A DNA stretch of 64,000 nt, from positions 10,627 to 74,626 of the forward strand of contig JAYEID010000013.1 of NCBI GenBank assembly GCA_034659915.1, read 5' to 3'. This DNA is from Patescibacteria group bacterium (lineage in GTDB: Bacteria; Patescibacteriota; WWE3; JAUXAW01; JAYEID01). A program made the translations under genes and the position numbers. The notes beneath the pieces are model-generated. The model ran no database searches, was not told the DNA's origin, and saw nothing but the letters and a program-made list of their open reading frames with translations. This document shows, piece by piece, positions 4,870-56,547 of the stretch (position 1 is its first letter; each line of letters opens with the position of its first letter).

Positions 4870-4938
4870 GCGGCCCGCGGGTTATCATATAAAATTCGTG
4901 TTGGCGAGTTCTCCGTTTATACATAAGGAGGGACGGCG

Positions 4939-5973
4939 ATGTCCAGGCGCAAAAACTCGTATGCGAGTTTTGGTAAGGGGGTAGATACACTTGAATCGTG
5001 GAGCTTTGAGGAACTAAAAAGGGCGGTGCAACTACCCGAAGATTTGTTGGAATGGGAGTCAACACCGTACCGCAAGGATCAGGCAAAAAGAGTTTTGCTC
5101 GGTGCTGCGCGAGAGTTACGCCTTGCCGCTCTTCGCGTTATAGCTGAGCAGATGAGACATGTAGCCCGTCGCGGGAGCCCCTCTTGGGCTGGTAGTTCCT
5201 ATTCCCCAGCTTTGCGCAACCGGGTACTCTTTTTATTGGAACAACTGTCCTCTGAGCAATTGCCACAGCCAACTGGGGGTCTGGTCTGGCAGCAAAGGTT
5301 CGCGATTGAGGAACTTGTTCTTAATGTGTTCGCTGATGAGTGTTTCGAAAGAACTCTGTACGGCGATAGCTTTGGTAGGGAATATTTTCATGTGTTTCAG
5401 CGGATTTGGGAATGTACGATAGCCTTGCCGGAGAAGCGCTATTCACCTACACGAGAGTTTGTTGAGCTGTACGATATGTTCTGGAGGAGATTTGTCGATA
5501 AAAGCAAAGCACCTCCTTTAGGTGCTCATATGGAAATGCTCCTTCGTAAGAGAGCTTACAGCAACACCTCAGAAGAGTTTTCGGAGGAGCTAAAAGAGTT
5601 CATTGACAGCGTGTGTGCGTGGTTAATTCGAGACGAAAAGAATGATGACCTGCTTCACTACATACGCCGTTATGGATTTTCGCAGACACGGCACGTACTC
5701 GAAAGACGTTTTTGGAAGATGCTCCTCAGGGCTGCGGAGCTGAGTGTGACAGATGACGAAGACCGCACTGCTTTTATGAAAATGCCTGTTCAGTGGGTAT
5801 TCGGGAATACAGAGGCTTGTAAGCACATCTCTAACCGGGTGGTTACCTCGTGGTGTGTAATGACAAGCCGCTCCATTGATGGCGCTGTGCGCGAGCCGTT
5901 CGAGGTTCCGCAATGGGTGAAGCGGACAAAGGTTTGGCTGGAATTTGAGAAGTGTGTGGAAACCTATACTTGA
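4939..5973 (+). CDS. Hypothetical protein (344 aa), Arg/Trp-rich, no recognised domain
   Basis: Long ORF with AAGGAGG RBS (4926-4932); local GC visibly higher than neighbouring genes; followed by a hairpin and T-run terminator at 6071-6118. Confidence 0.5.
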   Translation: MSRRKNSYASFGKGVDTLESWSFEELKRAVQLPEDLLEWESTPYRKDQAKRVLLGAARELRLAALRVIAEQMRHVARRGSPSWAGSSYSPALRNRVLFLLEQLSSEQLPQPTGGLVWQQRFAIEELVLNVFADECFERTLYGDSFGREYFHVFQRIWECTIALPEKRYSPTREFVELYDMFWRRFVDKSKAPPLGAHMEMLLRKRAYSNTSEEFSEELKEFIDSVCAWLIRDEKNDDLLHYIRRYGFSQTRHVLERRFWKMLLRAAELSVTDDEDRTAFMKMPVQWVFGNTEACKHISNRVVTSWCVMTSRSIDGAVREPFEVPQWVKRTKVWLEFEKCVETYT

Positions 5974-13322: not shown

Positions 13323-15605
13323 ATGGGAAAGAGAGGACGTCCCCGAAAAGTTAAATTTGAGTTAGAGAGAGATGCTGCACATTCTATTGCAGCAGTAGCA
13401 ATTTTGGCTTTATCTATTCTTACTCTTCTCTCCTTTTTTGGTCAGGCTGCAGGTTTTGGTTCTATGCTACAGAAGCTATTGAATCGTGTTTTTGGGTGGG
13501 GTGCTTTTTTAGTTCCTTTTATTCTTGCCCTTTCTAGCCTTATTCTTTTTCGCAAATTGAAATGGAAGATTATTCAGCCTCGGATACTTACGGGTTTGGT
13601 TCTTTTTTTGCTATCTTTTGATGGTACTGTTCATTTTTTCTTTTCTCCAGCTGTTGCTAAAGAGGAAGCTCTTATGGGCCAAGGAGGTGGAATGTTGGGG
13701 TATATTATTCAGAAATATCTTCGCACTTTTTTAGGTCCCTTTGGTGCTATTTTAATTTTGGCCTCATTTCTTTTAGTTTCTGTTTTGGTTATCTTTAATG
13801 CATCATTGGATGAAACCTTAGTATTTTTGGGTAATGTTTTAAGCGGGATAGGGAGATTTTTTGAAAACTTTGTTTTTAGAGGCACTTTGAAAGTTGTTCG
13901 GAAGCTTATTGGTCGGGAAGATGATTTGGAGGCTGAGGTTGTGGAAGGTAAAGAAGGTAGTTCTGAGTTGTCCTATGTGGGTGACGATGATGAGGAATCT
14001 GAAGGCGAGGTGGAGGAAGAGAAACAAGTTGAGAAAGTGCGGAGAGATGATTTGGTTGTTGTACAAGCTACTTATACTCCGCTTGGTGTAGAAGAGGATT
14101 CTGAGGATGTTGGGGAAGATGTAGAAAAAGCTCCATTGCGGCACGAAACTGTAGCAAATCTTCCGGAGAGTAAGAAAGAATGGGAGTATCCCCCACTAAG
14201 TATATTGGAAGATATACCTCCTTATAAGAAGGATCAGGAGGAGATGAAAGATGAGGCGCAGAAGATTGAAGATACTTTGGAGTCTTTTGGAATTAAAGCA
14301 AATGTTGCAGATGTAAAAATAGGACCTACTGTTACTCAATATGCTTTGGAAGCTGCTTCTGGTACAAAGCTTACAAAAATAACTACGCTCCATAAAGATC
14401 TTGCTATGGCTTTAGCCTCCTCTACTGGATCTGTGCGAATAGAGGCACCTATTCCAGGGAAGTCGTTAGTAGGTATTGAGGTACCCAATAAAAAGCCGGC
14501 AACGGTAGGGTTGAAGAGTGTGTTAACTTCCGAAGCAATGAAAAAATCTTCTTCTGTTTTGAGTGTGGCGCTTGGGAAGAATGTTTCCGGGCGGCCCCAA
14601 GTGGCTGATTTGGCTAGGATGCCTCACGTGTTAATTGCTGGTGCTACGGGGAGTGGTAAGTCAGTTCTTATTCACTCCTTCATCTGTTCATTGCTTTTTC
14701 GAACTACTCCAGAGGAGGTTCGACTGATTTTGGCAGACCCTAAGAGGGTTGAACTTTCAATTTATAGAGAAATTCCCCACCTTTTGACTCCTGTTATTTT
14801 GGATTCGGATAAGATGCTCCCTACTTTAGATTGGGCTGTGGAAGAGATGGAACGAAGATATAAACTCTTTCAAGATGCTGGGGCTAAAGATATTGATTCT
14901 TATAATGAAATTTCTGGTTTTCAGGCACTCCCTAAGATTGTTTTGGTTGTGGATGAATTAGCGGACTTGATGGCAGCAGCAGCGAACGAAGTTGAGAAAG
15001 CGGTTGTCCGGTTGGCCCAGATGTCAAGGGCTACCGGTGTTCACTTGGTTCTTTCCACACAGCGGCCTTCTACTGATGTTTTGACTGGGTTGATCAAGGC
15101 AAATATTCCTTGTCGGATAGCGCTGAATACAACCTCGGGAGTAGATTCACGGGTAATTATTGATCAGCCTGGGGCAGATAAGCTCTTGGGGCGCGGAGAT
15201 ATGCTGTACTTACCTCCTGAAGCGTCTACGCCCAAGCGAATTCAAGCTCCCTTTATTTCACTTATTGAAATTAAAGCCCTTGTTGATTTCCTACGAGAAG
15301 AGATGGAGGAAGAACCGGAGTTTGAGGAAAGTCTTCAGGAGGCTCAAGAGAAAATTAGCCAAAGGAACAAGTTGGCTGAGGAGGAGAATTTGGAAGGGCT
15401 TAGTGATGAGCTGTTCCCAGATGCTGTGGAGGTTGTTTGTCGTCATGATCGTGGTTCCGCTTCTCTTCTTCAGCGAAAGCTTTCTATTGGTTATGCGAGG
15501 GCTGCAAGGCTTTTGGATGCTCTAGAGGCTAAGGGCGTGGTTGGTCCTAAGGATGGTTCCAAACCCCGCGAACTTTTGGTTTCCGATCCCAGCGAAGTGC
15601 TGTAG
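13323..15605 (+). CDS. ftsK: DNA translocase FtsK/SpoIIIE
   Basis: N-terminal TM helices, an acidic linker, motor domain with Walker A GATGSGKSV, and a C-terminal gamma winged-helix domain. Confidence 0.92.
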   Translation: MGKRGRPRKVKFELERDAAHSIAAVAILALSILTLLSFFGQAAGFGSMLQKLLNRVFGWGAFLVPFILALSSLILFRKLKWKIIQPRILTGLVLFLLSFDGTVHFFFSPAVAKEEALMGQGGGMLGYIIQKYLRTFLGPFGAILILASFLLVSVLVIFNASLDETLVFLGNVLSGIGRFFENFVFRGTLKVVRKLIGREDDLEAEVVEGKEGSSELSYVGDDDEESEGEVEEEKQVEKVRRDDLVVVQATYTPLGVEEDSEDVGEDVEKAPLRHETVANLPESKKEWEYPPLSILEDIPPYKKDQEEMKDEAQKIEDTLESFGIKANVADVKIGPTVTQYALEAASGTKLTKITTLHKDLAMALASSTGSVRIEAPIPGKSLVGIEVPNKKPATVGLKSVLTSEAMKKSSSVLSVALGKNVSGRPQVADLARMPHVLIAGATGSGKSVLIHSFICSLLFRTTPEEVRLILADPKRVELSIYREIPHLLTPVILDSDKMLPTLDWAVEEMERRYKLFQDAGAKDIDSYNEISGFQALPKIVLVVDELADLMAAAANEVEKAVVRLAQMSRATGVHLVLSTQRPSTDVLTGLIKANIPCRIALNTTSGVDSRVIIDQPGADKLLGRGDMLYLPPEASTPKRIQAPFISLIEIKALVDFLREEMEEEPEFEESLQEAQEKISQRNKLAEEENLEGLSDELFPDAVEVVCRHDRGSASLLQRKLSIGYARAARLLDALEAKGVVGPKDGSKPRELLVSDPSEVL

Positions 15606-15670
15606 TTTTTGCGCCGGGGGTACGCGTTTTCAAGAACCGCGCGCCCGACTAGTGACTTTGGTGACTGCGC

Positions 15671-15760
15671 GCTTAGAGAAAAATTTGCTTTGGTCCGGGG
15701 TTAGTAGATAACTAATTGTAAGCAAATTTTTCTATGCTCTTGAAAACGGCACCCCCGCCA
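15671..15760. repeat. Diverged partial copy of the 172-nt element (3' module) downstream of ftsK
   Basis: GCTTAGAGAAAAATTTGCTTT...AAGCAAATTTTTCTATGCTCTTGAAAACGGCACCCCCGCC aligns with the 3' half of the 172-nt element plus the GGCACCCCCGCC boundary motif. It is flanked by ~45-nt direct repeats (15577-15625 and 15801-15850). Confidence 0.75.
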
Positions 15761-15867
15761 TGCTTACAGCGTGAAAGTATCTGTTCTTAATCTGATTAGC
15801 GTATTTTGATTTCCAATCCCAGCGAAGTGACGTAAATTTCGGGGGTCCGCCGGATTCGCGCGAGACT

Positions 15868-15985
15868 TTGACAGGCACCCCCCTTTCAGGGCCGCTCGCA
15901 CCGTTCAGCGTTGGAGAGTAGGAAAGAGAACCGCTCGCTTTGTGATCAAAACCCTTCATGGCGGGAGCCTGCCAAGTCCCTTTCC
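15868..15985. repeat. Intergenic repeat family B, copy 2 (upstream of rodZ-like)
   Basis: Shares GGCACCCC..CT.TCAGGGCCGCTCGC.CC ... CGCT.GCTTTGTGATCAAAA..CCCTTCA.GGCGGGAGCC.GCCAA with 53603-53760. Confidence 0.75.
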
Positions 15986-16030
15986 TTTTATCCGCGTAAA
16001 TCCGTATTAAATCTGCGAGAATCCTATTCT

Positions 16031-16768
16031 ATGAAATCTGTTGGCGAAATTCTAAAGAAAACACGTAAAAAACAAGGTTATTCTCTTTTAGAAGTTTCAG
16101 AAGAATTAAAAATCCACCCCCGGTTCCTAAAGGCGTTGGAAAGCGGGGATTATAATGTTTTTGCACACACTTTGCATGCAAAGGGTTTTTTGAAAAACTA
16201 TGCCGATTTTTTGGGATTAAATGTTTCTGAGGTTTTAGCTTTTTGGCGGCGTGAATATAAAGATTTTTCTGAGGAACCTGAAATTTGTGATGTTACTAAG
16301 CCTTTGGATCAACCTAGGGTTGTAATAACTCCAAAGAAACTTATTGCCTTTATATCTGCTTTCTTTGTGTTGGGGTTTTTAGCTTATGTCTTTTGGCAAT
16401 ACCGGTCTATTGCTGGTCCTCCGCGTTTGGAGGTGGTGGTACCCAAGCAAGATATGATAGTTTCGGAACCGCAAATAACTTTAAAGGGAAGTGCGGATCC
16501 AGCAGCCACACTTACTATTAACGGTCAGGAAGTTTTGTTGGGTGATGATGGTAGGTTTGCTTTTGATTATGTTCTTTCTGATGGTCCTAACACTTTGACC
16601 TTTACTGCAGTGAATGAGTTTGGAAAAGAAGCAGAGGTTACCCGTACTCTCATTTATGATCGTCCTAGGGATGTGACTTTGCCGCCTCCCGCATCAACGC
16701 CATCAGCTACTCCATCTGCTGAGCAAGAATCTACACCTTCTGCAATACCGGAGATGGATAGCGAATAG
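16031..16768 (+). CDS. rodZ: RodZ-like cytoskeleton protein (XRE-type HTH, TM helix, C-terminal beta domain)
   Basis: MKSVGEILKKTRKKQGYSLLEVSEELKIHPRFLKALESGDY HTH, one TM helix, a DUF4115-like C-terminus and a Pro/Ser/Thr tail. The ORF-track extension to 15911 overlaps a repeat element, so it is most likely not coding. Confidence 0.7.
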   Translation: MKSVGEILKKTRKKQGYSLLEVSEELKIHPRFLKALESGDYNVFAHTLHAKGFLKNYADFLGLNVSEVLAFWRREYKDFSEEPEICDVTKPLDQPRVVITPKKLIAFISAFFVLGFLAYVFWQYRSIAGPPRLEVVVPKQDMIVSEPQITLKGSADPAATLTINGQEVLLGDDGRFAFDYVLSDGPNTLTFTAVNEFGKEAEVTRTLIYDRPRDVTLPPPASTPSATPSAEQESTPSAIPEMDSE

Positions 16769-17592: not shown

Positions 17593-19629
17593 TTGCAACC
17601 ACCGCTTTTTTCCGTTATTCTTAAGAACACAGTGACAGCTAGAGAATTGATTGAAAAGTATATTTCCTTTTTTGAGGCGCGTGGTCATGTTGAGATTGCT
17701 GGGGCTTCCTTAGTACCAGAAAATGATCCTTCTGCACTTTTTATCTCTGCTGGTATGCACCCTCTAATTCCCTTCTTGTTGGGAGAAGAACACCCTGCTG
17801 GTAAGCGCTTAGTTAGCTTACAAAAATGTATTCGAACAAATGATATTGAGCAAGTAGGTGACGGGTTTCATCATACCTTCTTCTTAATGCTTGGAAACTG
17901 GTCTTTGGGTGATTATTTTAAAAAAGAGGCAATCTCTTTTAGTTTTGAATTTCTTACTTCTTCTGAGTGGTTAGGGTTAGCTCCGGAAAGGTTGTATGTT
18001 TCTGTTTTTGCTGGTGATGAGACTGCTTCCCGGGATAAGGAGTCAATTAAGTATTGGAAGTTAGAATTTAAGAAAGTAGGGATTAAGGCTGAGGTGGGTG
18101 AGAGGATATTCTTCTTTGGAAAAGAAGAAAACTGGTGGGGACCTGTAGGTGATACAGGACCTTGCGGACCTGATACAGAAATATTTTATGATATAGGCAA
18201 AGACCATTGTGGTCCTAATTGCGATCCCTCTTGTCAATGTGGGAAATATATTGAAATTTGGAATGATGTGTTTATGGAATTTAAAAGAATCCGCCGGTTG
18301 GCGGACCGCAAACCGCAAACCGTGAACCGTGAACCGCAAGATAAAGAGCGGAAGGCGGAGAGCGGTTCGCGGAATGCCGATTACGAATATGTTCCTTTAG
18401 AGCAGAAAAATGTAGATACGGGGATGGGTGTAGCTAGGGTTGTTGCAGTTACTAGCGGCTACGCAGATGATGATTATAAAACCGACCTTTTCCACCCTAT
18501 TATTTCCAAGATTGAAGACTTGTCTGGTAAAGAATACCAGCAATTAGAAGTTAACAATGAACAATCGTTAGTTAGTTCAATGCGCATTATTGCTGATCAT
18601 GTACGGGCAGCTGTTTTTGCTATCAGTGATGGTGTAGTACCTTCAAATACAGATCGAGGTTACGTGGTTAGGCGACTAATTCGCCGTGCTGTTCGTCATG
18701 GACATGCTTTAAACATCCAAGATAGCTTTTTGGGGCAAGTTGCAGAGGTTGTAATTGAGAATTATAAGGATCTTTTTCCTGGGTTGGAAAGTGAGGAGGA
18801 AACAATACTTACTGAGATTTCCGATGAGGAAAAAAGATTTGGTAAGGTTTTGCGGAGAGGTTTGAAGCATTTTGAAAAGTTGGTTGAACAAAAAGTTGGT
18901 GATGAAACGCTGCCGCACCTGCCTGCCGGCAAGGCAGGTTCCCCAGCCCCTGGGGCTGCGGCCAAAGAAGCCCCAGGGGCTTCTCCTGCGCTGGGCGAGC
19001 GAATTACCGGGGAAGAAGCCTTCGACCTTTACCAAACATATGGGTTTCCGTTGGAGTTAACCAAAGAGCTGGCAGAGGAAAGGGGTTTAGCGGTTGATAG
19101 AAAGGGGTTTGAAGAGGCCTACAAAAAGCACCAAGAGAAATCCCGTTCTGGTGCAGATAAGAAATTTAGTGGGGGTTTGGTAAGTGAATCTGAAGAAGTT
19201 ATAAAACTGCATACAGCTACCCATCTTTTGCACGAAGCTCTGCGCCAGGTATTGGGTGCTCATGTAAAGCAGGAAGGGTCGAACATTACTCCCCAAAGAT
19301 TGCGGTTCGATTTTTCCCATCCAAAAGCAATGACGGAGGAGGAGATTGGAGAAGTCGAAGCTCTAGTTAATGAAAAAATAGAGGAAGATTTGCCCGTGCG
19401 GAAAGAGACCATGTCATTAGAGGAGGCAAGGGAGCGGGGTGCTTTAGCGTTTTTTACAGATAAATATGGAGATGAGGTGAAAGTTTATTCTATTGGCGGA
19501 TTTTCAAAAGAAGTTTGCGCTGGTCCTCATGTTGATTCTACCGGGAAACTTGGTAAATTTGAGATAATAAAGGAAGAATCTGTGGGTCGCGGTAAACGGA
19601 GAATCCGTGCTATACTGAAAAAGGATTAG
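17593..19629 (+). CDS. alaS: Alanyl-tRNA synthetase, short form (catalytic, tRNA-binding and editing domains; no C-Ala domain)
   Basis: Class II AlaRS core (ARGHVEIAGASLVP...FISAGMHP...QKCIRTNDIE..GDGFHHTFFLMLGNWSLGDYFK) and an editing domain with HxxxH...CAGPH. The start is uncertain: TTG at 17593 or GTG at 17630 (MTARELIEKY). The gene carries an in-frame 78-nt GC-rich repeat at 18913-18990. Confidence 0.9.
   Translation: MQPPLFSVILKNTVTARELIEKYISFFEARGHVEIAGASLVPENDPSALFISAGMHPLIPFLLGEEHPAGKRLVSLQKCIRTNDIEQVGDGFHHTFFLMLGNWSLGDYFKKEAISFSFEFLTSSEWLGLAPERLYVSVFAGDETASRDKESIKYWKLEFKKVGIKAEVGERIFFFGKEENWWGPVGDTGPCGPDTEIFYDIGKDHCGPNCDPSCQCGKYIEIWNDVFMEFKRIRRLADRKPQTVNREPQDKERKAESGSRNADYEYVPLEQKNVDTGMGVARVVAVTSGYADDDYKTDLFHPIISKIEDLSGKEYQQLEVNNEQSLVSSMRIIADHVRAAVFAISDGVVPSNTDRGYVVRRLIRRAVRHGHALNIQDSFLGQVAEVVIENYKDLFPGLESEEETILTEISDEEKRFGKVLRRGLKHFEKLVEQKVGDETLPHLPAGKAGSPAPGAAAKEAPGASPALGERITGEEAFDLYQTYGFPLELTKELAEERGLAVDRKGFEEAYKKHQEKSRSGADKKFSGGLVSESEEVIKLHTATHLLHEALRQVLGAHVKQEGSNITPQRLRFDFSHPKAMTEEEIGEVEALVNEKIEEDLPVRKETMSLEEARERGALAFFTDKYGDEVKVYSIGGFSKEVCAGPHVDSTGKLGKFEIIKEESVGRGKRRIRAILKKD
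18913..18990. repeat. GC-rich palindromic repeat element inserted in-frame in alaS (copy 1)
   Basis: ~78 nt, ~90% identical to 29191-29269. Contains palindrome CCTGCCTGCCGGCAAGGCAGG and the inverted pair AGCCCCTGGGGCT / AGCCCCAGGGGCT. It is translated as PAGKAGSPAPGAAAKEAPGASPA. Confidence 0.85.
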
Positions 19630-28708: not shown

Positions 28709-29416
28709 ATGTCTGTTGTCGCACGAAGTTTTTATAAGGGAAAGACTACGAGTATTGCTAAAAACCTTTTGGGAAAGGTTTTGGTTCGCCACGTAAAGCC
28801 CACGGAGAGTGGGTCACGTGCCACCGAAGTTGAGAATGAAATAAACAAGAAAGGAATAATCGTAGAGACGGAGGCTTATTTAGGACCGGAGGATAAGGCT
28901 TGCCATTCCTTCAGAGGGAAGACAGAAAGAACGGAGGTAATGTTTGGACCGGCGGGGCATGCTTATGTTTATTTGGTTTACGGAATTCATTATATGTTTA
29001 ATATTGTGACTGAGGCTCCGGGAGAAGCTGTTTTGGTTCGAGCACTTGAACCCCTTGGTGGTGAATTTGGTAAACGCATTGCTTCCGGTCCGGGTAAACT
29101 GACAAAGTGGCTTAATATTGATAAAAGCTTCAACGGTTGGGATTTGACCAAGGGGGAGGGGTTGTGGATTTCCCATGAGCCGCGATCTTCGCCGTACCTG
29201 CTTGCCGGCAAGGCGGGTTCCCCAGCCCATGGGGCTGCGGCCAGAGAAGCCCCAGGGGCGTCTCTTGCGGCGGAGGATTTAGACCACGGAAATTTCGAAA
29301 TTTCTTCCGCAAAAAGAGTTGGTGTAGATTACGCCGAAGAGTGGTCGGAAAAACCGCTTCGTTTTTTCATCAAAGATAATCCCGCTGTTTCTACAGCGCA
29401 GGACTCCTTATGTTAA
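28709..29416 (+). CDS. 3-methyladenine DNA glycosylase (MPG/AAG family)
   Basis: VETEAYLGPEDKACHSFRGKTERTEVMFGPAGHAYVYLVYGIHYMFNIV matches the MPG family; carries the in-frame GC-rich repeat at 29191-29269. Confidence 0.8.
   Translation: MSVVARSFYKGKTTSIAKNLLGKVLVRHVKPTESGSRATEVENEINKKGIIVETEAYLGPEDKACHSFRGKTERTEVMFGPAGHAYVYLVYGIHYMFNIVTEAPGEAVLVRALEPLGGEFGKRIASGPGKLTKWLNIDKSFNGWDLTKGEGLWISHEPRSSPYLLAGKAGSPAHGAAAREAPGASLAAEDLDHGNFEISSAKRVGVDYAEEWSEKPLRFFIKDNPAVSTAQDSLC
29191..29269. repeat. GC-rich palindromic repeat element inserted in-frame in the MPG glycosylase gene (copy 2)
   Basis: Same element and same translated frame as copy 1 (LAGKAGSPAHGAAAREAPGAS). Confidence 0.85.
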
Positions 29417-39700: not shown

Positions 39701-39910
39701 GTATGGGCTTTGGAGGCGTATAGTGCTGCGGATATGTTACACGAAATGTTGACTATTAAATCTGATGATATAGTTGGACGCGGCCGTGCGTATAAGGCAT
39801 TAATTCAGGGGCAAGAAGTTCCAGAACCAACATTGCCGGAATCGTTTAAGCTTTTGGTTCGCGAGCTAAATGGTTTGGGTTTGGATATTGAAGGAGTAAA
39901 CAAAGAATAA
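36746..39910 (+). CDS. rpoB: DNA-directed RNA polymerase subunit beta
   Basis: 1054 aa with canonical RpoB motifs throughout. Confidence 0.97.
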   Translation: MRHYFDQKRSILPLPDLTSHQQDSFSWFKGEGIAEILEEINPIEDQTGRGWKLYFEDPRFEEPEVTAQEAMKRGLVYSSPWYLTARLVEEESGKEKKKDIFMGDFPEMTERGTFIINGVQRVVVGQLTRSEGVHFSGEIDPSTGNNLTTVKVIPKNGAWLEFSTYKRDELVVSINRSRKFPVTTLLRAFGVGNDKEMLEIFDDVDTDPNRKFIPTTLEADETPNYEEAILELFRKVRPGERVILKNAEDLFTQMFRDPQRFDLGAPGRFLLNQRLGLDYPLDNDRYRLLTKEDLIQIVRRMIRLNNGEGDYIDTDHLSNRRVKRIGELAQAQLRTGFLQMSRNIQGRMSIQPRGEFPSPKKLISARPVSARILSFYASSQLAQFHDQNNPLAFLSHLRRLTVKGPGGLTQRSASISVRDVHPSHYGRICPIETPEGANIGFTTHMALYARINELGFLEAPYRKVIEDEKGMKVTEEIEYLPSWEEEEHFITSASVDLDENGYIVSERVPLRKEGRFFSGSREPVEYIDVTPTQLVGAAASSVPFLSHDDPNRALMASNMSRQAVPLIKPESPIVGTGLEKDLALNSGAMVIAQSKGKVIYVDSKQIKVQTKDGIEEYELTKFKKSNNDTCLNQVPRVSVGDKVKKGDLLADGSSTDYGDLALGTNLKIAYVSFKGLNYEDAFVVSRRLVEEDVLTSIHISEYETSVLETKLGPEQVTRDIPNVSEEALRNLGEDGIVAVGSEVKSGDILVGKIAPKGESELSAEERLLRSIFGERARDVRDNSLRMPHGDYGTVVGIKVLTDENSDLEPGVLRKIQVRVAQRRKLAVGDKLVGKHGNKGVVAAIWPEEDMPYLEDGTPVDIIMSSCSVISRMNTGQLLETHLGAAGAKLGKRYAVPPFSKFDPEQLRAELEAAGLSKDGKQVLYDGFTGEAFEQKVVVGNSYILKLEHLVEDKIHARSTGPYALITQQPLGGKAQFGGQRFGEMEVWALEAYSAADMLHEMLTIKSDDIVGRGRAYKALIQGQEVPEPTLPESFKLLVRELNGLGLDIEGVNKE

Positions 39911-39972
39911 CCTTGATGGCAGAACTTTAGCAGGCACCTCGCCCGTAGAAAGTTTCCGGTTGCGGAACGCGT

Positions 39973-40144
39973 CGGTGCTACACGCTTTCAAGAGCCCTTG
40001 TACTACATAGAGTACAGGGCAGGCCGTGCTTAGGATTGAGCGCGTTTACCCCGAACCCTGCGTGGTTTGGGGCTTAGAGAAAAATTTGCTTTTAGTTTAT
40101 TGTTAATTGATAGGTTATTGTGGGCAAATTTTTCTATGCTCTTG
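39973..40144. repeat. 172-nt structured intergenic repeat, copy 1 (between rpoB and rpoC)
   Basis: 100% identical to 50854-51025; internal hairpins (CTTGTACT/AGTACAGG; CCCCGAACC/GGTTTGGGG with a G-U pair) and a long-range inverted repeat TTAGAGAAAAATTTGC / GCAAATTTTTCTATGC. Confidence 0.9.
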
Positions 40145-40227
40145 GAAACGGTACCCCCGCCGCGCTCGACTCTGTTTATTAATCGTCCTGCTGATAGCTG
40201 ACTGCGGAAAGCTGTTAGCAGATTATT

Positions 40228-43200
40228 ATGTCTAACGACTTATCACAGTTCGAAAAATTTGATGCATTAAAAATAACTTTGGCTAGTCCCCAAGAGGTTC
40301 GTTCTTGGTCTCACGGGGAGGTTACAGAGCCAGAGACTATTAATTACCGTACTTTTAGGGCGGAGAAGGATGGTTTGTTTTGTGAGAAGATTTTTGGTCC
40401 AACAAAAGATTTTGAATGCTATTGCGGTAAATACAAAAAAATTCGCTTCAAAGGTGTTATTTGTGACAAATGTGGGGTTGAGGTTACCCGGAGAAGGGTA
40501 CGCCGGGAGCGAATGGGACATATTGAACTTGCTTCCCCTTGTGGTCACGTGTGGTTCTTTGGTACTGTGCCTTCTAAAATGGCTCGGCTGTTGGGCATGC
40601 GTTCTCGTGACCTTAAAGCTGTTATTTATTACTCAAAGTATTTAATTTTGAGTGTGGACGAAGATGAGCGAGAAAAAGTAGTTTCTGTTTTGGAAAAAGA
40701 TTTGGAGAAAGAAAAGGAGCAACTTCGCGAGGAAACTGAGGCAGAGATTGAAAAGATTGAAAACCAGATTGAGGAAAGAGCAGAAGAAGCTGATAGCGAG
40801 GAGGAAAGGGAGGAAATTCTCTTTTCGGGACGGAAAGAAATTGCACAACTTCGCGATGATTTGGTTACCAAGAAAAACAATTTAGAAAAGAAGTATGATG
40901 TTCTTTCAGCCCATTTAGAAGAAATTGAACCTCTTTCTGTTATTGGTGAGGCTGAGTATCGAAGTTTGCAAAAATATTTAGATAAGTTTTCGCAGGTTGG
41001 GATTGGAGCTCCGGGAGTTAAACGGGTATTAGAAGAGTTGAATACAGAAGAAATTGCCACGGAGCTGCGAGAAAAATTAAGAGAAACTAGTTCTAAGAGT
41101 AAAAGAAAGAAATACACTAGGCGCCTTAAAGCTGTTGAGCAATTTAATCGTTCTGATGTAGAACCAGCGTGGATGATTTTGGATGTTTTGCCTGTGATTC
41201 CTCCCGAACTGCGACCAATGGTCCAATTGGAGGGGGGACGATTTGCAACTTCTGATCTAAACGACCTTTACCGGGCTGTAATAAATCGAAATAATCGGTT
41301 GAAAGAATTGCTAGAATTAGGCGCGCCCGAACTTATTTTAAAAAATGAGCGGAGAATGCTTCAGGAAGCAGTGGATGCTCTAATTGATAGCAGCCGCTCG
41401 CGTCGGCGCCGCTACCGTGGGCAGAAAAAGCTCCGTTCTCTTTCAGATCTTATAAAAGGTAAACAGGGTCGGTTTAGAAGGAATTTACTTGGTAAGCGCG
41501 TAGATTATTCAGGGCGCTCAGTTATTGTAGTTGGTCCCGAGCTCAAAATTTCCGAGTGTGGTGTTCCAAAAGAAATGGCTTTAGAGCTTTTTAAGCCTAT
41601 GGTAATTAGGGAAGTATTGGCAGAGGGGCTAGCGCCTAATGTAAAGATGGCTAAGGAATTTATTAAACAGGAGCCACCTGAAGTGTGGGATATTTTGGAG
41701 CGGGTAGTTGAGGGTTGGCCTGTTCTTCTGAATCGGGCACCCACCTTGCATCGCTTGGGAATTCTTGCCTTTTATCCAAAACTTCTAGATGGTAAAGCGT
41801 TGAGTATTCACCCTTGTGTCTGTGCCGGTTATAATGCAGACTTTGACGGCGATCAAATGGCTGTTCATGTTCCTCTTTCTAAAGAAGCAAAAAGAGAAGC
41901 AGAAGAAATTATGCTTTCGACCAAAAACCTGCTTAAGCCAGCTTCGGGCAGCCCAGTAGTATCACCTTCCAAGGATATGGTCTTGGGTCTGTATTGGTTA
42001 ACAAGAGGACAGGGAGAGTTAGCTGAGGATAAGTTTTACTACTTAGAAGAGGCAAAAGTTGCTTGGGGAGAGGGCTACCTTAAGTTAAGACAGTTAACTA
42101 GGATTGAAATTGATGGAGTAGTTAGGGAAACTACTTTGGGTCGTGCTTTAGTAAATGAGAAAATTCCTAACAGCTTGGGATACGTAAACAAGGTAATGGA
42201 TAAAGATGTAGTCAAAGATGTTTTGAATCGTTGTTTGGAAGAGGAAGGTGAGGAAAGAACCGTTCAGTTGGTGGATGATTTGAAGTCTCTTGGATTTAAG
42301 TATGCTACTGAGTCAGGTATATCTATGGGTATCTTTGATACAGATGTACCAATTGATAAGCAAGAGAAGATTGAGGAGGCTGAGGAAAAAGTAGCAGAAA
42401 TTGAACACAACTTCCGGCGCGGGCTTTTGACTGAGGGTGAGATGCGGAGGCTTTCGCAGGAAATATGGCTGGATTTGACAAACGAATTAGAAGAGCTGAC
42501 CTGGAATTCGATGCGGAAGGAAAACCCAATGCGGATCTTGATTGAATCTGGTGCGCGCGGTTCTCCCGACCAGGTTAAGCAAATTTCAGGAATGAAGGGT
42601 TTGGTTGTTGATCCTACTGGTAAGATTGTAGAGTTGCCAACCAAATCTAACTATTTTGAAGGACTTTCCGAGTTTGAATATTTTGCAGGGGCTCGTGGTG
42701 CACGTAAAGGTTTGGCTGACACAGCGCTGAAGACGGCTGATGCTGGGTACCTCACACGGCGCCTCGTGGATGTTTGTCAGGAAGTTCTTGTTCGGGAAGA
42801 GGACTGTGGTACCCGAGCAGGTTTGGAAATTTCACGTGATGATGGTGAAGAGTTTGGTAGCTTTGCTTCAAGGTTAGAAGGGCGCGTAGCTGCAGACACA
42901 GTAAAAGATTCTGATGGTAATATTCTGGCTCGGCGTAATGACTTGATAGATAAGAGAAAGGCGGAAGAAATTGCAGAACAAGGACCCGATAGTGTGTTAC
43001 TGCGGTCCCCTATGACGTGTGAAACACCGTATGGTATCTGTCAAAAGTGCTATGGTTGGGATTTGGGCTGGCGCCAATTAGTGGAGTTGGGCTCACCCGT
43101 GGGTGTTATTGCTGCTCAATCAATTGGAGAGCCTGGCACTCAGCTGACACTACGAACTTTCCACTTTGGTGGTATTGCTAAAGAGGATATTACTCGTGGG

Positions 43201-44592: not shown

Positions 44593-44670
44593 CAATTGTT
44601 CATCTATTGTTTATCGCGATTCTGATCGCAGTTTAACGGCAACTTCTGAGTTGCATTTTACGAGTGTTTA
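44593..44670 (+). ncRNA. Conserved intercistronic structured element (rpsL-rpsG), copy 1
   Basis: CAATTGT...CGCGATTCTGATCGCAGTTTAACG shared with 56461-56535; hairpin GCGAT-tctg-ATCGC and a second hairpin GCAACT-tctg-AGTTGC whose stem covaries with GCAGTT-tccg-AACTGC in copy 2. Confidence 0.5.
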
Positions 44671-50832: not shown

Positions 50833-50853
50833 TAGGTAGTATTGTGGATGCGC

Positions 50854-51025
50854 CGGTGCTACACGCTTTCAAGAGCCCTTGTACTACATAGAGTACAGGG
50901 CAGGCCGTGCTTAGGATTGAGCGCGTTTACCCCGAACCCTGCGTGGTTTGGGGCTTAGAGAAAAATTTGCTTTTAGTTTATTGTTAATTGATAGGTTATT
51001 GTGGGCAAATTTTTCTATGCTCTTG
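50854..51025. repeat. 172-nt structured intergenic repeat, copy 2 (between rplW and rplB)
   Basis: Identical to 39973-40144. Confidence 0.9.
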
Positions 51026-51185
51026 ATCCCCGCCGCATCTTCGAGTTTGGGGGGTTACAACTTGAAAGATTCCGTTCTAATTCGCGTAAATTCGTTTTAG
51101 ATTAGTGTGAATTCGTGTGGGTTCCGGAAACAATGCGATCACATTTCTTTTATCGATTAACTGTCAAAGCTGTCTAGTTGATATT

Positions 51186-52010
51186 ATGAAAAAGTATAAA
51201 CCGACATCCCCGGGGCGACGGCACCGTGTGGATATAGATAAAAGTAAATTATCTAAAAAAGGACCGGAAAAGAAGCTTTCTTCTGGTGTTAAAGAGAAGG
51301 CTGGTCGTTCAGGTGGTAAAATTTCTGTTCGCCACAAAGGGAGTCGGGTAAAAAGGAAATTTAGGAATATTGATTTTAAAAGGAAGAAAAGAAGTATTCC
51401 CGGTGAGGTAGTTTCTTTGGAATATGATCCTAATCGGAGTGCGCATATTGCACTAATAAAATACGCGGATGGTGAAAAAAATTATATAATTGCACCTCAT
51501 GGCTTAGAAGTCGGAGAAAAAATTGTGGCAGGGGAAGATGTGGAGGTTAAAAGGGGTAATGCTATGCCTCTAGCTAATGTTCCTTTAGGAGAAGAGGTAC
51601 ACAATGTGGAGCTCCATCCTGGCGGTGGGGGGCAAATGGTTAGATCTGCTGGTACCAGTGCTCGGGTTATTGCCAAACCTGGTAAATATGTGCACTTGAA
51701 AATGCCTTCTGGTGAGGTCCGAAAGGTTTTGTCTTCTTGTTATGCTACCGTAGGTGGTGTGTCCAATCCTGATTGGGAAAATAAGAATTGGGGTAAGGCT
51801 GGTCGTAAGCGCCACTTAGGTATTAGACCAACGGTAAGGGGTTCGGCTATGGCTCCGGATGCTCACCCTCATGGTGGTGGAGAAGGAAGGACTGGGGAAG
51901 GGATGCCTTCTCCTAAGACTCCTTGGGGAAAGAAAACTCGTGGTAAGAAAACCCGAAAACGAAAACATACGGATAAGTACATAGTAAAAGATAGGCGGGA
52001 GAAGAAATAA
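51186..52010 (+). CDS. rplB: 50S ribosomal protein L2
   Basis: MKKYKPTSPGRRHRV...; GGGGQ...HPHGGGEG motifs; the ORF-track start at 51117 is an extension. Confidence 0.96.
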   Translation: MKKYKPTSPGRRHRVDIDKSKLSKKGPEKKLSSGVKEKAGRSGGKISVRHKGSRVKRKFRNIDFKRKKRSIPGEVVSLEYDPNRSAHIALIKYADGEKNYIIAPHGLEVGEKIVAGEDVEVKRGNAMPLANVPLGEEVHNVELHPGGGGQMVRSAGTSARVIAKPGKYVHLKMPSGEVRKVLSSCYATVGGVSNPDWENKNWGKAGRKRHLGIRPTVRGSAMAPDAHPHGGGEGRTGEGMPSPKTPWGKKTRGKKTRKRKHTDKYIVKDRREKK

Positions 52011-52068
52011 GCATTTTTAAAAGCACCAAACATCAAATACCAAGTTCCAGAAGTTTGTTATTTGAAGT

Positions 52069-52096
52069 TTGGAGTTTGGAATTTAAAATTTAGTAT
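52069..52096 (+). promoter_or_regulatory. Conserved promoter-like module TTGGAG-16nt-TAGTAT upstream of rpsS
   Basis: Same architecture and spacer-sequence family as modules upstream of dnaK (8-35) and rplV (52447-52474). Confidence 0.4.
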
Positions 52097-52113
52097 TTAG
52101 AATTTAAAAAATT

Positions 52114-52407
52114 ATGTCTAGATCAACAAAAAAAGGTCCTTATGTGGACCCGAGACTATTGGAAAAAGTTAAAAAAGCAAAAAAGACTAGCTCTCAGGAG
52201 CCGATAAAAACATGGGCGCGAGGTAGTAATATAAGCCCAGAAATGGTGGGTGTAACTATAGCTGTTCATAATGGGCGGGAGCATGTGCCTGTTTTTATTA
52301 CTGAGGCTATGGTGGGCCACAAATTAGGTGAGTTTGTGCCAACTCGTACTTTCCGTAAGCACGGGAAGAAGGGTGTCAAATCAACCCTTTCCGAAGGCCG
52401 TGTTTAA
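52114..52407 (+). CDS. rpsS: 30S ribosomal protein S19
   Basis: S19 family ([29 protein letters not shown]). Confidence 0.95.
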
Positions 52408-52446
52408 GGGAGAATTTCGAAATTCGAATCTCGAAATCCAAAATAT

Positions 52447-52474
52447 TTGGAGCTTAGGATTTAGAATTTATGAT
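52447..52474 (+). promoter_or_regulatory. Conserved promoter-like module TTGGAG-16nt-TATGAT upstream of rplV
   Basis: ATTTGGAGCTTAGG.ATTTAGAATTTA is shared almost verbatim with positions 6-29 upstream of dnaK. Confidence 0.4.
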
Positions 52475-52484
52475 TTAAATTATT

Positions 52485-52823
52485 ATGGTTGTTTATGCTC
52501 GAAGCAAAAGTTTACCAATATCTCCGCAGAAGATGAACTTGGTTTTGGATTTAATTCGGGGAAAAGATATTGCAGAAGCAAGGAAGATACTTACTTTTTC
52601 TACAAAGAAGGCAGCCGGTCTTGCTAAGAAGGCTTTGAATTCAGCTGTAGCAGATGCTAAGCACAATGAGGGTTTAAGAGAAGATGAGCTAAAAATAGTG
52701 GAAGCCCGAGCAGATAAGGCTCCTACTTTGAAGCGGATCCGGCCTAGAGCTAGGGGGCGTGCTGATAGAATTTTAAAAAGACGTACACATCTTACCATTG
52801 GTGTAGGGACGGAAGAAGGATAA
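52485..52823 (+). CDS. rplV: 50S ribosomal protein L22
   Basis: L22 family, 112 aa. Confidence 0.93.
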
Positions 52824-52958
52824 TCGCAGGTTTTTTTGTCTGTGTAAATCCTTGTTTATACAGTTAACACTTTATTGGTAGTTGCGCATTTATTGATAAT
52901 TTATTTGTTTTGAATTTCCGCGGATATGTAGATTCGCGTTAATTCTACGAGGTTAAAT

Positions 52959-53591
52959 ATGGGTCAAAAAACACATCCGATTGGATTTAGATTAGGGACA
53001 ACTTCAGATTGGAAATCACAGTGGTTCGAGGAAGATCCAGAAGCCTATGCGGAAAAAGTTTTGGAAGATAGGAAGATTAGAGAGTTTATTCGGGAGAATG
53101 TTGGTAGGGCTGGTGTTAGCGAGATACGAATTGAACGATCTCTGGATGATATTAAAGTAACTATTAAGGTTGCTCGACCAGGTATGGTAATTGGGCGTGG
53201 TGGTTCTAGAATTGAACTTTTGCGCGACGGTTTAGAAGATATTTGTAGTAAAAAACCAGAGATCTCGGTTGAGGAGGTCAAGACTCCCGCACTTTCTGCT
53301 AGGTTAATTGCTGAAAATATAGCTCGGCAAATTGAACGACGCCGCTCCCCCATTGGAGTTATGAACTCGCAAGCTAGCAAAGCAATTTATAAAGGGGCAA
53401 AGGGAATAAAGATTCAAGTACGAGGGCGGTTATATGGTAGCCAGTATGCGCGGAAAGCAGAGGTTACTGAAGGTTCAGTTCCTTTGCAAACAATTCGTGC
53501 AAGTATTGATTATGCTTTTGATGAAGCAAGAACTAAGTATGGGAAAATCGGGGTTAAAGTTTGGGTTTATTTGGGAGAAGAGGAAATATAA
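52959..53591 (+). CDS. rpsC: 30S ribosomal protein S3
   Basis: KH domain and the S3 C-terminal domain. Confidence 0.96.
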   Translation: MGQKTHPIGFRLGTTSDWKSQWFEEDPEAYAEKVLEDRKIREFIRENVGRAGVSEIRIERSLDDIKVTIKVARPGMVIGRGGSRIELLRDGLEDICSKKPEISVEEVKTPALSARLIAENIARQIERRRSPIGVMNSQASKAIYKGAKGIKIQVRGRLYGSQYARKAEVTEGSVPLQTIRASIDYAFDEARTKYGKIGVKVWVYLGEEEI

Positions 53592-53602
53592 TATGAAAAG
53601 AC

Positions 53603-53760
53603 TTTGGCGGGCACCCCGCCTCTCAGGGCCGCTCGCGCCTGTCGAAGTTTAAGTCTGATTTGGTTAAGCGCTTGCTTTGTGATCAAAAGTCGAATGGTGT
53701 CAGTGAATAATTGTAGCGACTTTTGATCAAAACCCTTCAAGGCGGGAGCCAGCCAACGTC
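53603..53760. repeat. Intergenic repeat family B, copy 1 (between rpsC and rplP), with a nested hairpin insertion
   Basis: Same modules as 15868-15985, plus a ~45-nt insert forming TGATCAAAAGTCG...CGACTTTTGATCA (53680-53730), flanked by direct repeat GATCAAAA. Confidence 0.75.
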
Positions 53761-53850
53761 TTGTTAGATTCTTAGTTTGGAGTTTTTGATTTGTTGTTTA
53801 TTTGAAATTTGTAATTTGTTCCGCCGGCCGGCGGATTGGAATTATTAACT

Positions 53851-54270
53851 ATGTTGTATCCAAAAAAGAAGAAATATAGAAGAGAATTTAGAGGAACTCT
53901 TAAAGGTGTTGCTCAACGAGGGACAACACTGGCTTTTGGTGATTATGGTTTAAAAGCCTTGGGTAATGGTTGGATAACTATGCGCCAAATAGAAGCAGCA
54001 CGGAGGGCTATAGTTCATTCTACCAAGAGAAGTGGGAAAATGTGGATAAGGATTTTTCCAGATAAGCCTGTTACAGCTAGACCTGCGGGAATGAGAATGG
54101 GTCGGGGTAAGGGTCCTGTTGACCATTATGTGGCGCCAGTTAAGGCTGGAAGAATTCTGTTTGAGTTGGGAGGATTAGATGAGGGTGCTGCTCGAGAAGC
54201 TTTGCGGCGTGCTGCTAACAAGCTTCCAACTAAGACAGAAATAGTTACTCAAGAGGATTTTGTAGTTTAA
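53851..54270 (+). CDS. rplP: 50S ribosomal protein L16
   Basis: MLYPKKKKYRREFRG...; start at 53851 rather than the ORF-track start at 53836. Confidence 0.94.
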   Translation: MLYPKKKKYRREFRGTLKGVAQRGTTLAFGDYGLKALGNGWITMRQIEAARRAIVHSTKRSGKMWIRIFPDKPVTARPAGMRMGRGKGPVDHYVAPVKAGRILFELGGLDEGAAREALRRAANKLPTKTEIVTQEDFVV

Positions 54271-54285
54271 ATTTTTTAAAATAAA

Positions 54286-54492
54286 ATGACGAAGGCGCAA
54301 GAATTACGACAAGAAAGTAAAGAAAGTTTGGAAAAGAAATTAAAGGATTTGCAAAAAGAGTTAATGAATTTACAGATGGAGCACCGAACTGATGGGTTGG
54401 TGGATACTACCGTTTTAAGTAAAAAGAGAAGGGAAATAGCAAAGATAAAAACAGTGTTACGAGAAAAAGAGGTTTTAGCTCAGATTGAGTAA
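54286..54492 (+). CDS. rpmC: 50S ribosomal protein L29
   Basis: L29 family, 68 aa, coiled-coil. Confidence 0.9.
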   Translation: MTKAQELRQESKESLEKKLKDLQKELMNLQMEHRTDGLVDTTVLSKKRREIAKIKTVLREKEVLAQIE

Positions 54493-54509
54493 GCAGCTGA
54501 TTAACTATT

Positions 54510-54875
54510 ATGTTGCAGCCAGGATCTATTCTAAAAGTAGCTGACAATTCCGGAGCAAAGGAGCTAAAGGTTATTACTATTATTGGTTCCAAAAACTGGG
54601 CAGAGGTTGGGGATGTGGTGTCGGGTTCTGTTCAAGGTGTGACTTCGGGCGAAAGCGAGGTTTCGGACCACGAGGTAGTGAGAGCAGTTGTGGTTCGTAC
54701 TAAGAAGGAGAAAAGGCGTAAGGACGGTTCTTATATTCGTTTTGATGACAATGCTTGTGTTATCTTGGACAAGCGGGGCCTCCTCTTGGGAACACGGGTT
54801 CTTGGTCCGGTTGCTCGTGAAGTTCGAAAATCCGGCTTTGTAGATGTTGCATCCAAAGCGCCGGAAGTTATTTGA
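54510..54875 (+). CDS. rplN: 50S ribosomal protein L14
   Basis: VADNSGAKE...AVVVRTKKEKRRKDGSYIRFDDNACV...GTRVLGPVAREVR. Confidence 0.95.
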   Translation: MLQPGSILKVADNSGAKELKVITIIGSKNWAEVGDVVSGSVQGVTSGESEVSDHEVVRAVVVRTKKEKRRKDGSYIRFDDNACVILDKRGLLLGTRVLGPVAREVRKSGFVDVASKAPEVI

Positions 54876-54900
54876 TTTGTAATTAAATTCCGATTTTAGT

Positions 54901-55140
54901 ATGCCAAAGAAAACTCTAGAAGGAAAAGTTATTTCTGACAAAATGGATAAAACTGTGGTGGTTGAAGTTATGCGGACATACCACCACCCGCGCTATAAGA
55001 AGCGCGTTGAGAAACACAAGAAGTATAAGGCTCATGATTCGTTGGGAGCTAAAGTGGGAGATGTTGTGCAAATAGAGGAATGTCGTCCTCTTAGTAAGGA
55101 TAAACACTTTAAGGTGATTAGGATACTCGCGGATTCTTAA
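54901..55140 (+). CDS. rpsQ: 30S ribosomal protein S17
   Basis: GKVISDKMDKTVVVEV...HDSLGAKVGDVVQIEECRPLSKDKHFKV; lies after rplN, the reverse of the usual order. Confidence 0.93.
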   Translation: MPKKTLEGKVISDKMDKTVVVEVMRTYHHPRYKKRVEKHKKYKAHDSLGAKVGDVVQIEECRPLSKDKHFKVIRILADS

Positions 55141-55250
55141 ATTTGGTGGAGATCCAATAAGCATATTCTATTAACAACCTATTTGTTGCCTAATTGCGGA
55201 CAGTAGTTTGAAAGCTTTTCGCAGATGGAATCTGCGGGAGTTAGCATTAA

Positions 55251-55559: not shown

Positions 55560-55569
55560 AGTTTAAATT

Positions 55570-56115: not shown

Positions 56116-56230
56116 GATTGGCCTTAATGGCTTCAGTGGTATCAGTAGATTCAATAGTTTTTATCCGGCTCCTGAATCTATTGAAGCCCTTGAGGCTCTT
56201 GAAGCTCTTTTGTTTCCGAAGGAAGCTATT

Positions 56231-56416: not shown

Positions 56417-56460
56417 TTGCAATTGTAATGCAGTGGTAATATGGTGGTAAAACAGTAAAA

Positions 56461-56535: not shown

Positions 56536-56547
56536 TAGCGAGCTATT

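Follow-up and report, generated by a model that had tools for sequence, protein, structure and literature searches.

The duplicated ftsK gene end beside a structured repeat element in a Patescibacteria genome is probably a recombination or duplication scar

The ftsK-rodZ region

The DNA analysed here, which we call the window, is a stretch of 64 kb from a Patescibacteria group bacterium (assembly GCA_034659915.1, contig JAYEID010000013.1, positions 10,627 to 74,626 of the forward strand). It derives from a Microgenomates-like metagenome-assembled genome (MAG) with a GC content of 42%, and was studied together with about 30 kb of DNA from close relatives. Our subject is an imperfect direct repeat of the 3' end of ftsK, which lies in the spacer between this gene and a rodZ-like gene, and the hairpin-forming intergenic element, a member of a repeat family that we call family A, that stands between the two copies. 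At 425 nt the spacer is unusually long. The region is made up of the following features:

13323 to 15605, plus strand: ftsK, 760 amino acids, from the list of open reading frames (ORFs); Pfam domains FtsK_4TM, FtsK_alpha, FtsK_SpoIIIE and FtsK_gamma; homologues named DNA translocase FtsK, Patescibacteria
15574 to 15625, plus strand: repeat copy 1, comprising the last 10 codons of ftsK and its TAG stop, then a 9-nt linker, then 11 nt from the start of the family-A 5' arm
15615 to 15757, plus strand: complete family-A element
15758 to 15803, plus strand: tail 1, the linker between the family-A element and copy 2
15804 to 15850, plus strand: repeat copy 2, a non-coding copy of the ftsK end with pseudo-stop TAA (15833-15835), a 4-nt linker and an 11-nt A-type 5' arm (15840-15850)
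15864 to 15976, plus strand: decayed family-B hairpin element, closing arms retained and inner hairpin gone; matches 53599-53756; fold z = -0.9, compared with -4.0 for an intact copy
15977 to 16030, plus strand: tail 2, 54 nt of rodZ-proximal modules of the GCGTAAAT type; orthologous in all four relatives introduced below (scores 21-23 versus 8 +/- 1.6 for shuffled sequence, 0/1000)
16031 to 16768, plus strand: HTH_25 (RodZ-like) gene, from gene calls and Pfam PF13413 (1.9e-18)

Copy 1 is the true 3' end of ftsK and reads ...LLVSDPSEVL*. Copy 2 would read ILISNPSEVT* and is preceded immediately by in-frame stop codons. Without gaps, the repeat pairs 15574-15609 with 15804-15839 at a spacing of 230 nt, with 30 of 36 positions identical. 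Once a 5-nt gap is allowed, gapped local alignment carries it on to 15625 and 15850, respectively. In this alignment copy 1 consists of TTTTGGTTTCCGATCCCAGCGAAGTGCTGTAGTTTT, the five nucleotides TGCGC and CGGGGGTACGC, and copy 2 of TTTTGATTTCCAATCCCAGCGAAGTGACGTAAATTT, the gap and CGGGGGTCCGC; CGGGGGTACGC and CGGGGGTCCGC are the stretches gained beyond the gap. An earlier note on this DNA had placed the duplication at 15577-15625 and 15801-15850, which is right to within 3 nt.

The same note had considered that the similarity might prove insignificant. The local alignment score of 46 compares with 16.9 +/- 2.1 (maximum 31) in 2000 shuffles, so the similarity is significant. As an empirical null, gene ends were also aligned against their downstream 800 nt. 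In this test ftsK of the window scored 42, while the highest score elsewhere among 86 ftsK loci was 28, and the next-best among 121 gene ends in the window was 29. The repeat is thus confirmed as genuine and far above chance. It is also limited in extent, since the units 15574-15803 and 15804-16030 show no significant likeness past about 52 nt (global score 30 versus 25 +/- 6.5; p of about 0.25 in a test for extension). The arrangement is identical, across the repeat, in a Logan contig of run SRR26901925 (8283 nt) and in one of a second run, SRR26901928 (3109 nt); looking up the exact RodZ protein turned up a second run with this arrangement and nothing else. The longest exact run common to both copies is 14 nt, leaving no k-mer path for a mis-join.

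A comparison site by site traces each of the copies back to the consensus of the clade, CTTTTGATTTCCGATCCCAGCGAAGTGCTGTAA. Copy 2 has four derived changes of its own, three of which give D>N and L>T, in addition to the 5-nt indel. The changes private to copy 1 are two in number, I>V and TAA>TAG. The copies also share derived traits that set them apart from all relatives, namely a T at site 15 (ATCCC) and a short linker between stop codon and element arm, which measures 9 nt in copy 1 and 4 nt in copy 2 versus 11-17 nt in the relatives.

The ftsK site in related genomes

Relatives were chosen as the contigs that encode the closest FtsK proteins in a search of 5.8 billion proteins. Four lineages, L082, L083, L084/85 and L086/87, were obtained, with FtsK identities of 88, 82, 80 and 78% (MAGs GCA_964581885.1, GCA_964476415.1, GCA_964581615.1 and GCA_964467235.1). 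Gene order around ftsK is unchanged in all four. All of them also carry an A-type element directly 3' of the ftsK stop, with the homologous 5' arm C.GGGGT.ACGC...CAAGA, and none has the duplicated ftsK end (scores of 15-21, compared with 42 in the window). The more distant L002 (76%) has a simple terminator-like hairpin after ftsK, and neither element nor duplication. A scan of a genome collection with the FtsK C-terminus returned 80 loci, of which L002 was the only moderately close one; none had the element or the duplication.

The earlier note had proposed a search of related ftsK-rodZ spacers for an empty site, and had named as contrary evidence relatives that are duplicated but lack the element. 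No empty site was found in L082, L083, L084 or L086, and what these genomes show is the opposite arrangement, element present and duplication absent, in every case. Because all four hold a homologous element without the duplication, the element predates the split of these lineages and is ancestral at the ftsK site, and the duplication is private to the window lineage.

The ftsK gene itself is a mosaic. Over most of its length the window is nearest to L082 (about 0.8-0.88). In a 240-nt block, alignment positions 1561-1800, it is 0.92-0.93 identical to L083 and 0.76-0.77 to L082, and over the last 36-60 nt it is nearest to L086 (last 36 nt: 0.86 to L086 versus 0.64 to L082).

The family-A element

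The element between the copies had been taken for a partial one (15671-15760). Folding, an arm search and an inverted repeat (I1, 14/14) identify it instead as a complete but shorter family member with both closing arms. Its RNA fold has a predicted energy of -64 kcal/mol (z = -4.9; range for family-A elements -4.9 to -6.7), and its parts are:

15615 to 15635, plus strand: 5' arm of closing stem P1 (21 nt)
15639 to 15672, plus strand: P2, a small, variable, GC-clamped hairpin
15673 to 15676, plus strand: TTAG
15677 to 15733, plus strand: P3, a 14-bp perfect hairpin
15734 to 15737, plus strand: ATGC
15738 to 15757, plus strand: 3' arm of P1 (20 nt)

The window contains three family-A copies and the relatives seven in about 30 kb. 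Apart from the element at ftsK they are located as follows:

39965 to 40167, plus strand: copy in the rpoB-rpoC spacer
50847 to 51039, plus strand: copy in the rplW-rplB spacer, with a 10-nt deletion in the 3' arm
L082, L083, L084 and L086: one copy each at the ftsK site
L084: copy upstream of alaS
L099: copies in the rplW-rplB and rplB-rpsS spacers

A MAFFT alignment of seven copies mis-aligned the subfamilies and was abandoned in favor of anchored searches for arms and hairpins. The descriptor used for this purpose consists of TYAG, an 11-bp stem, a loop and ATR. At 11/11 pairs it found true copies only; about 1.4 weaker chance matches are expected per shuffled window. The L082 copy, which has a bulge in P3, was placed by hand.

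All 10 copies, from five genomes, have the same architecture: a closing stem P1 of 20-30 bp, a variable middle, TYAG, the hairpin P3 of 12-14 bp, ATG and the 3' arm, in a total length of 143-203 nt. The sequence of P1 varies between copies, its length always staying at 20-30 bp. P3 exists in three unrelated sequence versions, AGAAAAATTTGC/GCAAATTTTTCT, AGATCGAAAGCC/GGCTTTCGATCT and TGAAGATTTTGC/GCAAAATCTTCA, and its pairing is kept in 108/108 cells, while 9 of 12 positions have compensatory changes on both sides, although the types act like subfamilies, so that few independent events are represented. Two versions may coexist in one genome (in L084 the ftsK copy is of type 2 and the alaS copy of type 1), and modules have been recombined between sites, as in L083, which combines a window-like P1 with a type-2 P3. 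In L084 (5290-5341) the ftsK stop is followed first by a remnant of a window-type 5' arm, CTGGGGTACGCATTTCCAAGACCC, and then by a complete element that belongs to another subtype, which indicates that elements have successively replaced one another, or become nested, at a single site.

The copies have no conserved ORF. A small ORF from the conserved ATG after P3 was dismissed on inspection, since L083 reads ATG TCT TGA there. Every one of the 10 copies points in the direction of its flanking genes, and the start is usually 7-14 nt past the upstream stop codon. G-U pairs number 56 on the plus strand versus 27 on the minus strand, yet for three of the 10 copies the minus-strand fold is no worse than that of the plus strand. 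Family A may be co-transcribed with the flanking genes, and the long P1 helix may act at the RNA level, as a target of RNase III or by protecting 3' ends.

Searches beyond these genomes gave no further members. Rfam had no gathering-level match in the window, and nothing relevant at E<=10 for 15550-16050 or 39900-40240. A pattern scan of JGI (Joint Genome Institute) metagenomes for the type-1 hairpin (GCTTAGAGAAAAA N30-60 ATTTTTCTAT) produced seven matches, all of them AT-rich chance hits without the element architecture, and the same pattern had no match in viral contigs. Our literature search for repeat elements or miniature transposable elements with inverted repeats (MITEs) in Patescibacteria found nothing relevant. 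From the genomes compared, family A appears to be a resident, structured intergenic repeat, similar to MITEs or to repetitive extragenic palindromic (REP) sequences, of a narrow Patescibacteria clade only.

Mobility of the family and the question of a target-site duplication

The earlier note had read the duplication as the footprint of an insertion whose target duplication was unusually long, and on that ground as direct evidence that the family is mobile. Several observations contradict the first part of this reading. The repeat takes in 11 nt from the start of the 5' arm of the element itself, CGGGGGTNCGC, and no part of an inserted element can belong to a target duplication. A search of both strands of the 64 kb with one mismatch allowed locates CGGGGGTNCGC only at 15615 and 15840, each time just past a copy of the ftsK end. 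The repeats do not abut both termini of the element, since 46 nt of non-hairpin sequence separate its 3' arm from copy 2. In addition, the site was already occupied in the relatives, and none of the nine other family-A copies, in five genomes, has flanking direct repeats, flank-to-flank scores being at the level of shuffled sequence. This includes the rpoB-rpoC and rplW-rplB copies of the window, which are identical over 172 nt and so young. The claim of direct evidence for mobility falls with the target-duplication reading and is unsupported. The note's alternative, a local duplication mediated by the element, is viable, and the duplication does adjoin the element.

Mobility in the evolutionary sense was nevertheless borne out by other sites and by the 172-nt identity just mentioned. 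In the window the rplW-rplB spacer holds a family-A copy and measures 356 nt. Its counterpart in L099 (257 nt) has an A copy of a different subtype, that of L095 (274 nt) is occupied by unrelated repeat sequence, and that of L097/L098 is a mere 21 nt without any element. Conversely, relatives have family-A copies at sites that are empty in the window, namely upstream of alaS in L084 and between rplB and rpsS in L099. These comparisons support the view that family A is mobile in the sense of being gained and lost between relatives.

Origin of the duplicated ftsK end

Taken together, the data suggest that the repeat is a recombination or duplication scar, whether formed in situ or imported, and we consider this broad conclusion probable. 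Among the specific scenarios we lean, with the odds still a little short of even, towards a one-off local duplication in situ, by illegitimate recombination at the level of microhomology or by replication template switching, beside the long hairpin. The ancestral order would have been ftsK, stop codon, family-A element, further spacer modules and rodZ, as in all sampled relatives, and a segment of about 52 nt that takes in the ftsK stop and reaches into the beginning of the 5' arm would then have been re-copied beyond the hairpin. We infer two possible molecular routes. Either a template switch directly across the base of the hairpin stem copied some 50 nt anew, or ftsK end, element and tail (230 nt) were first duplicated in tandem and most of the second, deletion-prone hairpin was then lost. 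The ancestor of a duplication in situ would read ftsK, A, tail 1, GGATTCGCG, B. The upstream copy, in frame with ftsK, would have remained under selection, and the downstream copy, being non-coding, would have decayed; the D>N and L>T changes of copy 2 are as expected of a copy released from selection. A duplication in situ also fits the intact element after ftsK in every relative and the derived traits that the two copies have in common. At the left junction, the tail module of the rplW-rplB spacer reads TTTTAGATT where the ftsK end reads TTTTGATT, a possible microhomology of 8 nt at best.

Several points weigh against this account. The allele that preceded the duplication was not found, the nearest FtsK among the 5.8 billion proteins being 88% identical. 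A simple tandem duplication was rejected because the two units are alike in their first 52 nt or so only, so that on the tandem route about 170 nt must have been deleted in a further event. The direct template switch, in turn, lacks clear microhomology at the right junction. Copy 1 has two changes of its own despite selection, which would also fit an imported copy. As regards the element itself, orientation bias and G-U excess go no further than suggesting a role at the RNA level.

An import is the basis of the most serious competing scenario, which we regard as possible, if somewhat unlikely: homology-facilitated illegitimate recombination, or unequal exchange of diverged alleles, with DNA of a closely related strain. 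Such recombination has been shown in naturally competent bacteria and in E. coli (PMC3240628). A donor segment of ftsK 3' part, stop, intact A element and tail would have paired homologously inside ftsK and been joined illegitimately just upstream of the last 32 nt of the resident gene. The resident ftsK end, now copy 2, would have been pushed downstream together with its own degraded A remnant and the B element, so that the resident allele would read ftsK, ATTT, CGGGGGTCCGCC, B, with no intact A. A single event, by a documented mechanism, would account for everything, including the end of similarity after about 52 nt, which needs no extra steps. It would be in keeping with the mosaic structure of ftsK among lineages (blocks nearest L082, L083 and L086), with the shuffling of P1 and P3 modules at the ftsK site exemplified by L083, and with copy 2 retaining the ancestral A7 and TAA where copy 1 has a unique G7 and TAG. 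However, a resident allele without an intact A element after ftsK is required, unlike any of the four relatives sampled. The derived traits shared by the copies imply that the donor was closer than any genome in the databases, and neither donor nor recipient allele was found.

A target-site duplication could be rescued if the mobile unit were the A element plus its 46-nt tail (15610-15803), inserted through staggered cuts about 36 nt apart in the last codons of ftsK, with gap repair remaking the gene end upstream. The family has demonstrably been gained and lost among relatives, the duplicated 36 nt directly adjoin the interval that holds the element, the ftsK reading frame is neatly kept, and tail 1 resembles the stretch 3' of the rplW-rplB copy (51055-51103), so that element and tail might form one unit. 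(Tail 1 and tail 2 have a marginal likeness, with p of about 0.09.) Yet the repeat runs into the element's own arm, the element is ancestral in four relatives without the duplication, the other nine copies lack flanking repeats, and 17% divergence plus an indel would make the insertion old at a site that was already occupied. Bacterial transposable elements generally give rise to target duplications of only some 2-15 bp, and a stagger of 36-52 nt would be far outside this range. We therefore judge the scenario improbable and, for the most part, refuted. Still more so is a remnant of site-specific integration, in which an element targeting the ftsK 3' end would have brought a replacement gene end, the attachment sites attL and attR having a core in common, and a later deletion would have left about 200 nt between the two att-like copies. 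Integrase-mediated insertion into gene ends classically leaves a duplicated 3' end of which the second copy has diverged. But neither an integrase nor any other foreign gene lies between the copies or near them, the interval consists of the clade's own A element and spacer modules, the minus-strand ORF at 15732-15959 has no Pfam match, the scan of viral contigs for the element gave nothing, and the repeat contains the arm of the resident element. Least credible is an assembly artefact in which two strain variants of the region were concatenated. The metagenomic source and the strain mosaicism in the clade would allow for it, but the MAG contig is identical to the Logan contigs of both runs. 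Even combined, the integration remnant and the artefact have very little probability.

Other features of the spacer and other repeats

A scan of the spacer for promoters and terminators found no promoter-like site and one weak terminator-like hairpin. The latter lies over the ftsK stop in copy 1 (15590-15610: CAGCG AAG TGCTG, then TAGTTTTTG), and its stem is broken in copy 2. Arrays of modules similar to 'ATC.GCGTAAAT' are located directly upstream of gene starts at 15977-16030 and 51070-51110 of the window, and the array at the rodZ site is kept in all four relatives; these might consist of promoters or operators, or else belong to the repeat system. The minus-strand ORF (75 amino acids, over copy 2 and the B element) was called by a public gene caller. 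With no Pfam match, and in lineage-specific repeat DNA, it is probably spurious. As for other possible integration targets, the window has no tRNA or tmRNA genes.

Family B is a second family of hairpin repeats, with a long closing stem (TTGGCGGGCACCCCGCC... / ...GGCGGGAGCCAGCCAA), the 3' arm of which is also present in the ftsK-rodZ spacers of L084 and L086. Its intact copy in the window is:

53601 to 53760, plus strand: family-B copy in the rpsC-rplP spacer, fold z = -4.0

The motif ACTTTRRCRGGCACCYCGCC occurs a few nt past the stops of rpoB and rpsC (39924-39947 and 53601-53620). Between rpoB and rpoC it stands ahead of the A element, and no partner arm for it is evident. A third repeat, CAATTGTT.ATCTATTGTTTA.CGCGATTCTGATCGCAGTTTAACG, is found in two spacers of the window (44593-44638 and 56461-56506), and a similar sequence fills the rplW-rplB spacer of L095 (about 4920-5000), where the window holds an A element. 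The S10/spc ribosomal-protein operon (50833-57198) has spacers of 103-432 nt, very long for a streamlined genome; at the same operon sites the spacers of L097/L098 measure 21 nt (rplW-rplB) and 99 nt (rpsC-rplP).

Finally, a GC-rich palindromic repeat of 79 nt, with copies 91% identical, is present inside coding sequences, at 18912-18990 in alaS (17593-19629) and at 29191-29269 in ORF 28709-29416. It is in frame in these two unrelated genes and encodes LPxLxAGKAGSPAxGAAAxEAPGASxA; in the ORF it splits a methylpurine-DNA glycosylase domain (PF02245) in two.

Significance

The duplicated ftsK end is a small and ordinary scar, and does not demonstrate transposition. It exposes a wider context, in which a narrow clade of Patescibacteria, with streamlined genomes of about 1 Mb, carries families of GC-rich branched hairpin repeats. 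The repeats sit a few nt past the stops of essential genes (ftsK, rpoB, rplW, rplB and rpsC), and swell the spacers of a ribosomal-protein operon, otherwise about 20 nt long, to 250-430 nt. Without exception they are oriented with transcription; they exchange modules, and one related family lies in frame inside proteins. If they are signals for RNA processing or stability, they bear on the way in which genomes with hardly any regulators organise their gene expression. If, on the other hand, they are wholly selfish, repeat proliferation is tolerated within the most conserved operons of reduced genomes.

A far-reaching extension of these observations, which we offer as speculation with a small chance of being right, would treat families A and B and the in-frame GC-rich repeat as a type of mobile, structured element, so far undescribed, of the ultra-small genomes of Patescibacteria. 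Such elements would spread by way of a transcript or single-stranded intermediate and recombination, with no classical transposase, and would swap P1, P2 and P3. They would serve as operon 'punctuation', that is, as sites of processing or stabilisation behind essential genes (ftsK, rpoB and rplW among them), and the duplicated ftsK end would be a by-product of occasional co-copying of the upstream flank.

Comparison with known systems

MITEs are defined as non-coding, multi-copy elements of <500 bp, with terminal inverted repeats of about 4-30 bp and direct repeats, of lengths not given, flanking young copies (PMC10969869). Family A agrees with this definition in size, non-coding nature, copy number, terminal inverted repeats (imperfect arms of 20-30 nt in all 10 copies) and presence/absence polymorphism, and departs from it in having no direct repeats around young copies. 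MITEs are also usually AT-rich (PMC10969869), whereas family A is GC-rich in a genome of 42% GC.

The Correia elements of Neisseria (CREE/NEMIS), and also ERIC and RUP/BOX, are similar to family A in being short and non-coding, with long imperfect terminal inverted repeats that form one long hairpin. They, too, are intergenic, co-transcribed, present in several copies per genome and polymorphic between relatives, with nested or decayed copies. The hairpins of CREE are bound and cleaved by RNase III and alter the expression of neighbouring genes (PMC2649163), and the P1 helix of family A may have a similar role. Family A lacks the short fixed target duplication of CREE (TA). It further differs from CREE and other MITE-like repeats in its conserved multi-way junction (TYAG ... 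ATG), its swappable covarying modules P1, P2 and P3, the uniform orientation of its 10 copies with the genes, the lack of a known cognate transposase and the absence of similarity to Rfam. The in-frame 79-nt repeat, for its part, resembles the Rickettsia palindromic elements, which are found inside coding sequences.

REP sequences and REPINs, which depend on RAYT (REP-associated tyrosine transposase) proteins of the HUH Y1 type, and the single-stranded DNA transposition of IS200/IS605, share with family A the hairpin-forming extragenic repeats and the lack of target duplications. REP/REPIN are also strand- or orientation-biased and lie just downstream of genes. REPINs, however, are simple doublets of a 20-40 nt palindrome, while family A is branched and 143-203 nt long. 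No RAYT or TnpA gene was seen in the 64 kb, in which no transposase-directed search was made, and no conserved tetranucleotide target was identified.

As to the duplication itself, integrase attachment-site duplications resemble it in having a diverged copy of the last codons downstream of intervening DNA, with the gene left intact; they differ from the window, which has no integrase and no cargo, and an interval of about 200 nt of native spacer modules. Further parallels are the tandem or local duplications made by illegitimate recombination or template switching at palindromes, and homology-facilitated illegitimate recombination (PMC3240628), the products of which likewise are direct repeats of tens of nt, with arbitrary ends, next to a structure-forming sequence. 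The junction microhomology of the window, a putative one, is 8 nt at best, and its units are not alignable beyond 52 nt, unlike those of a simple, intact tandem duplication. In these parallels, as in the window, one copy keeps the gene intact while the other decays, and no transposase is needed.

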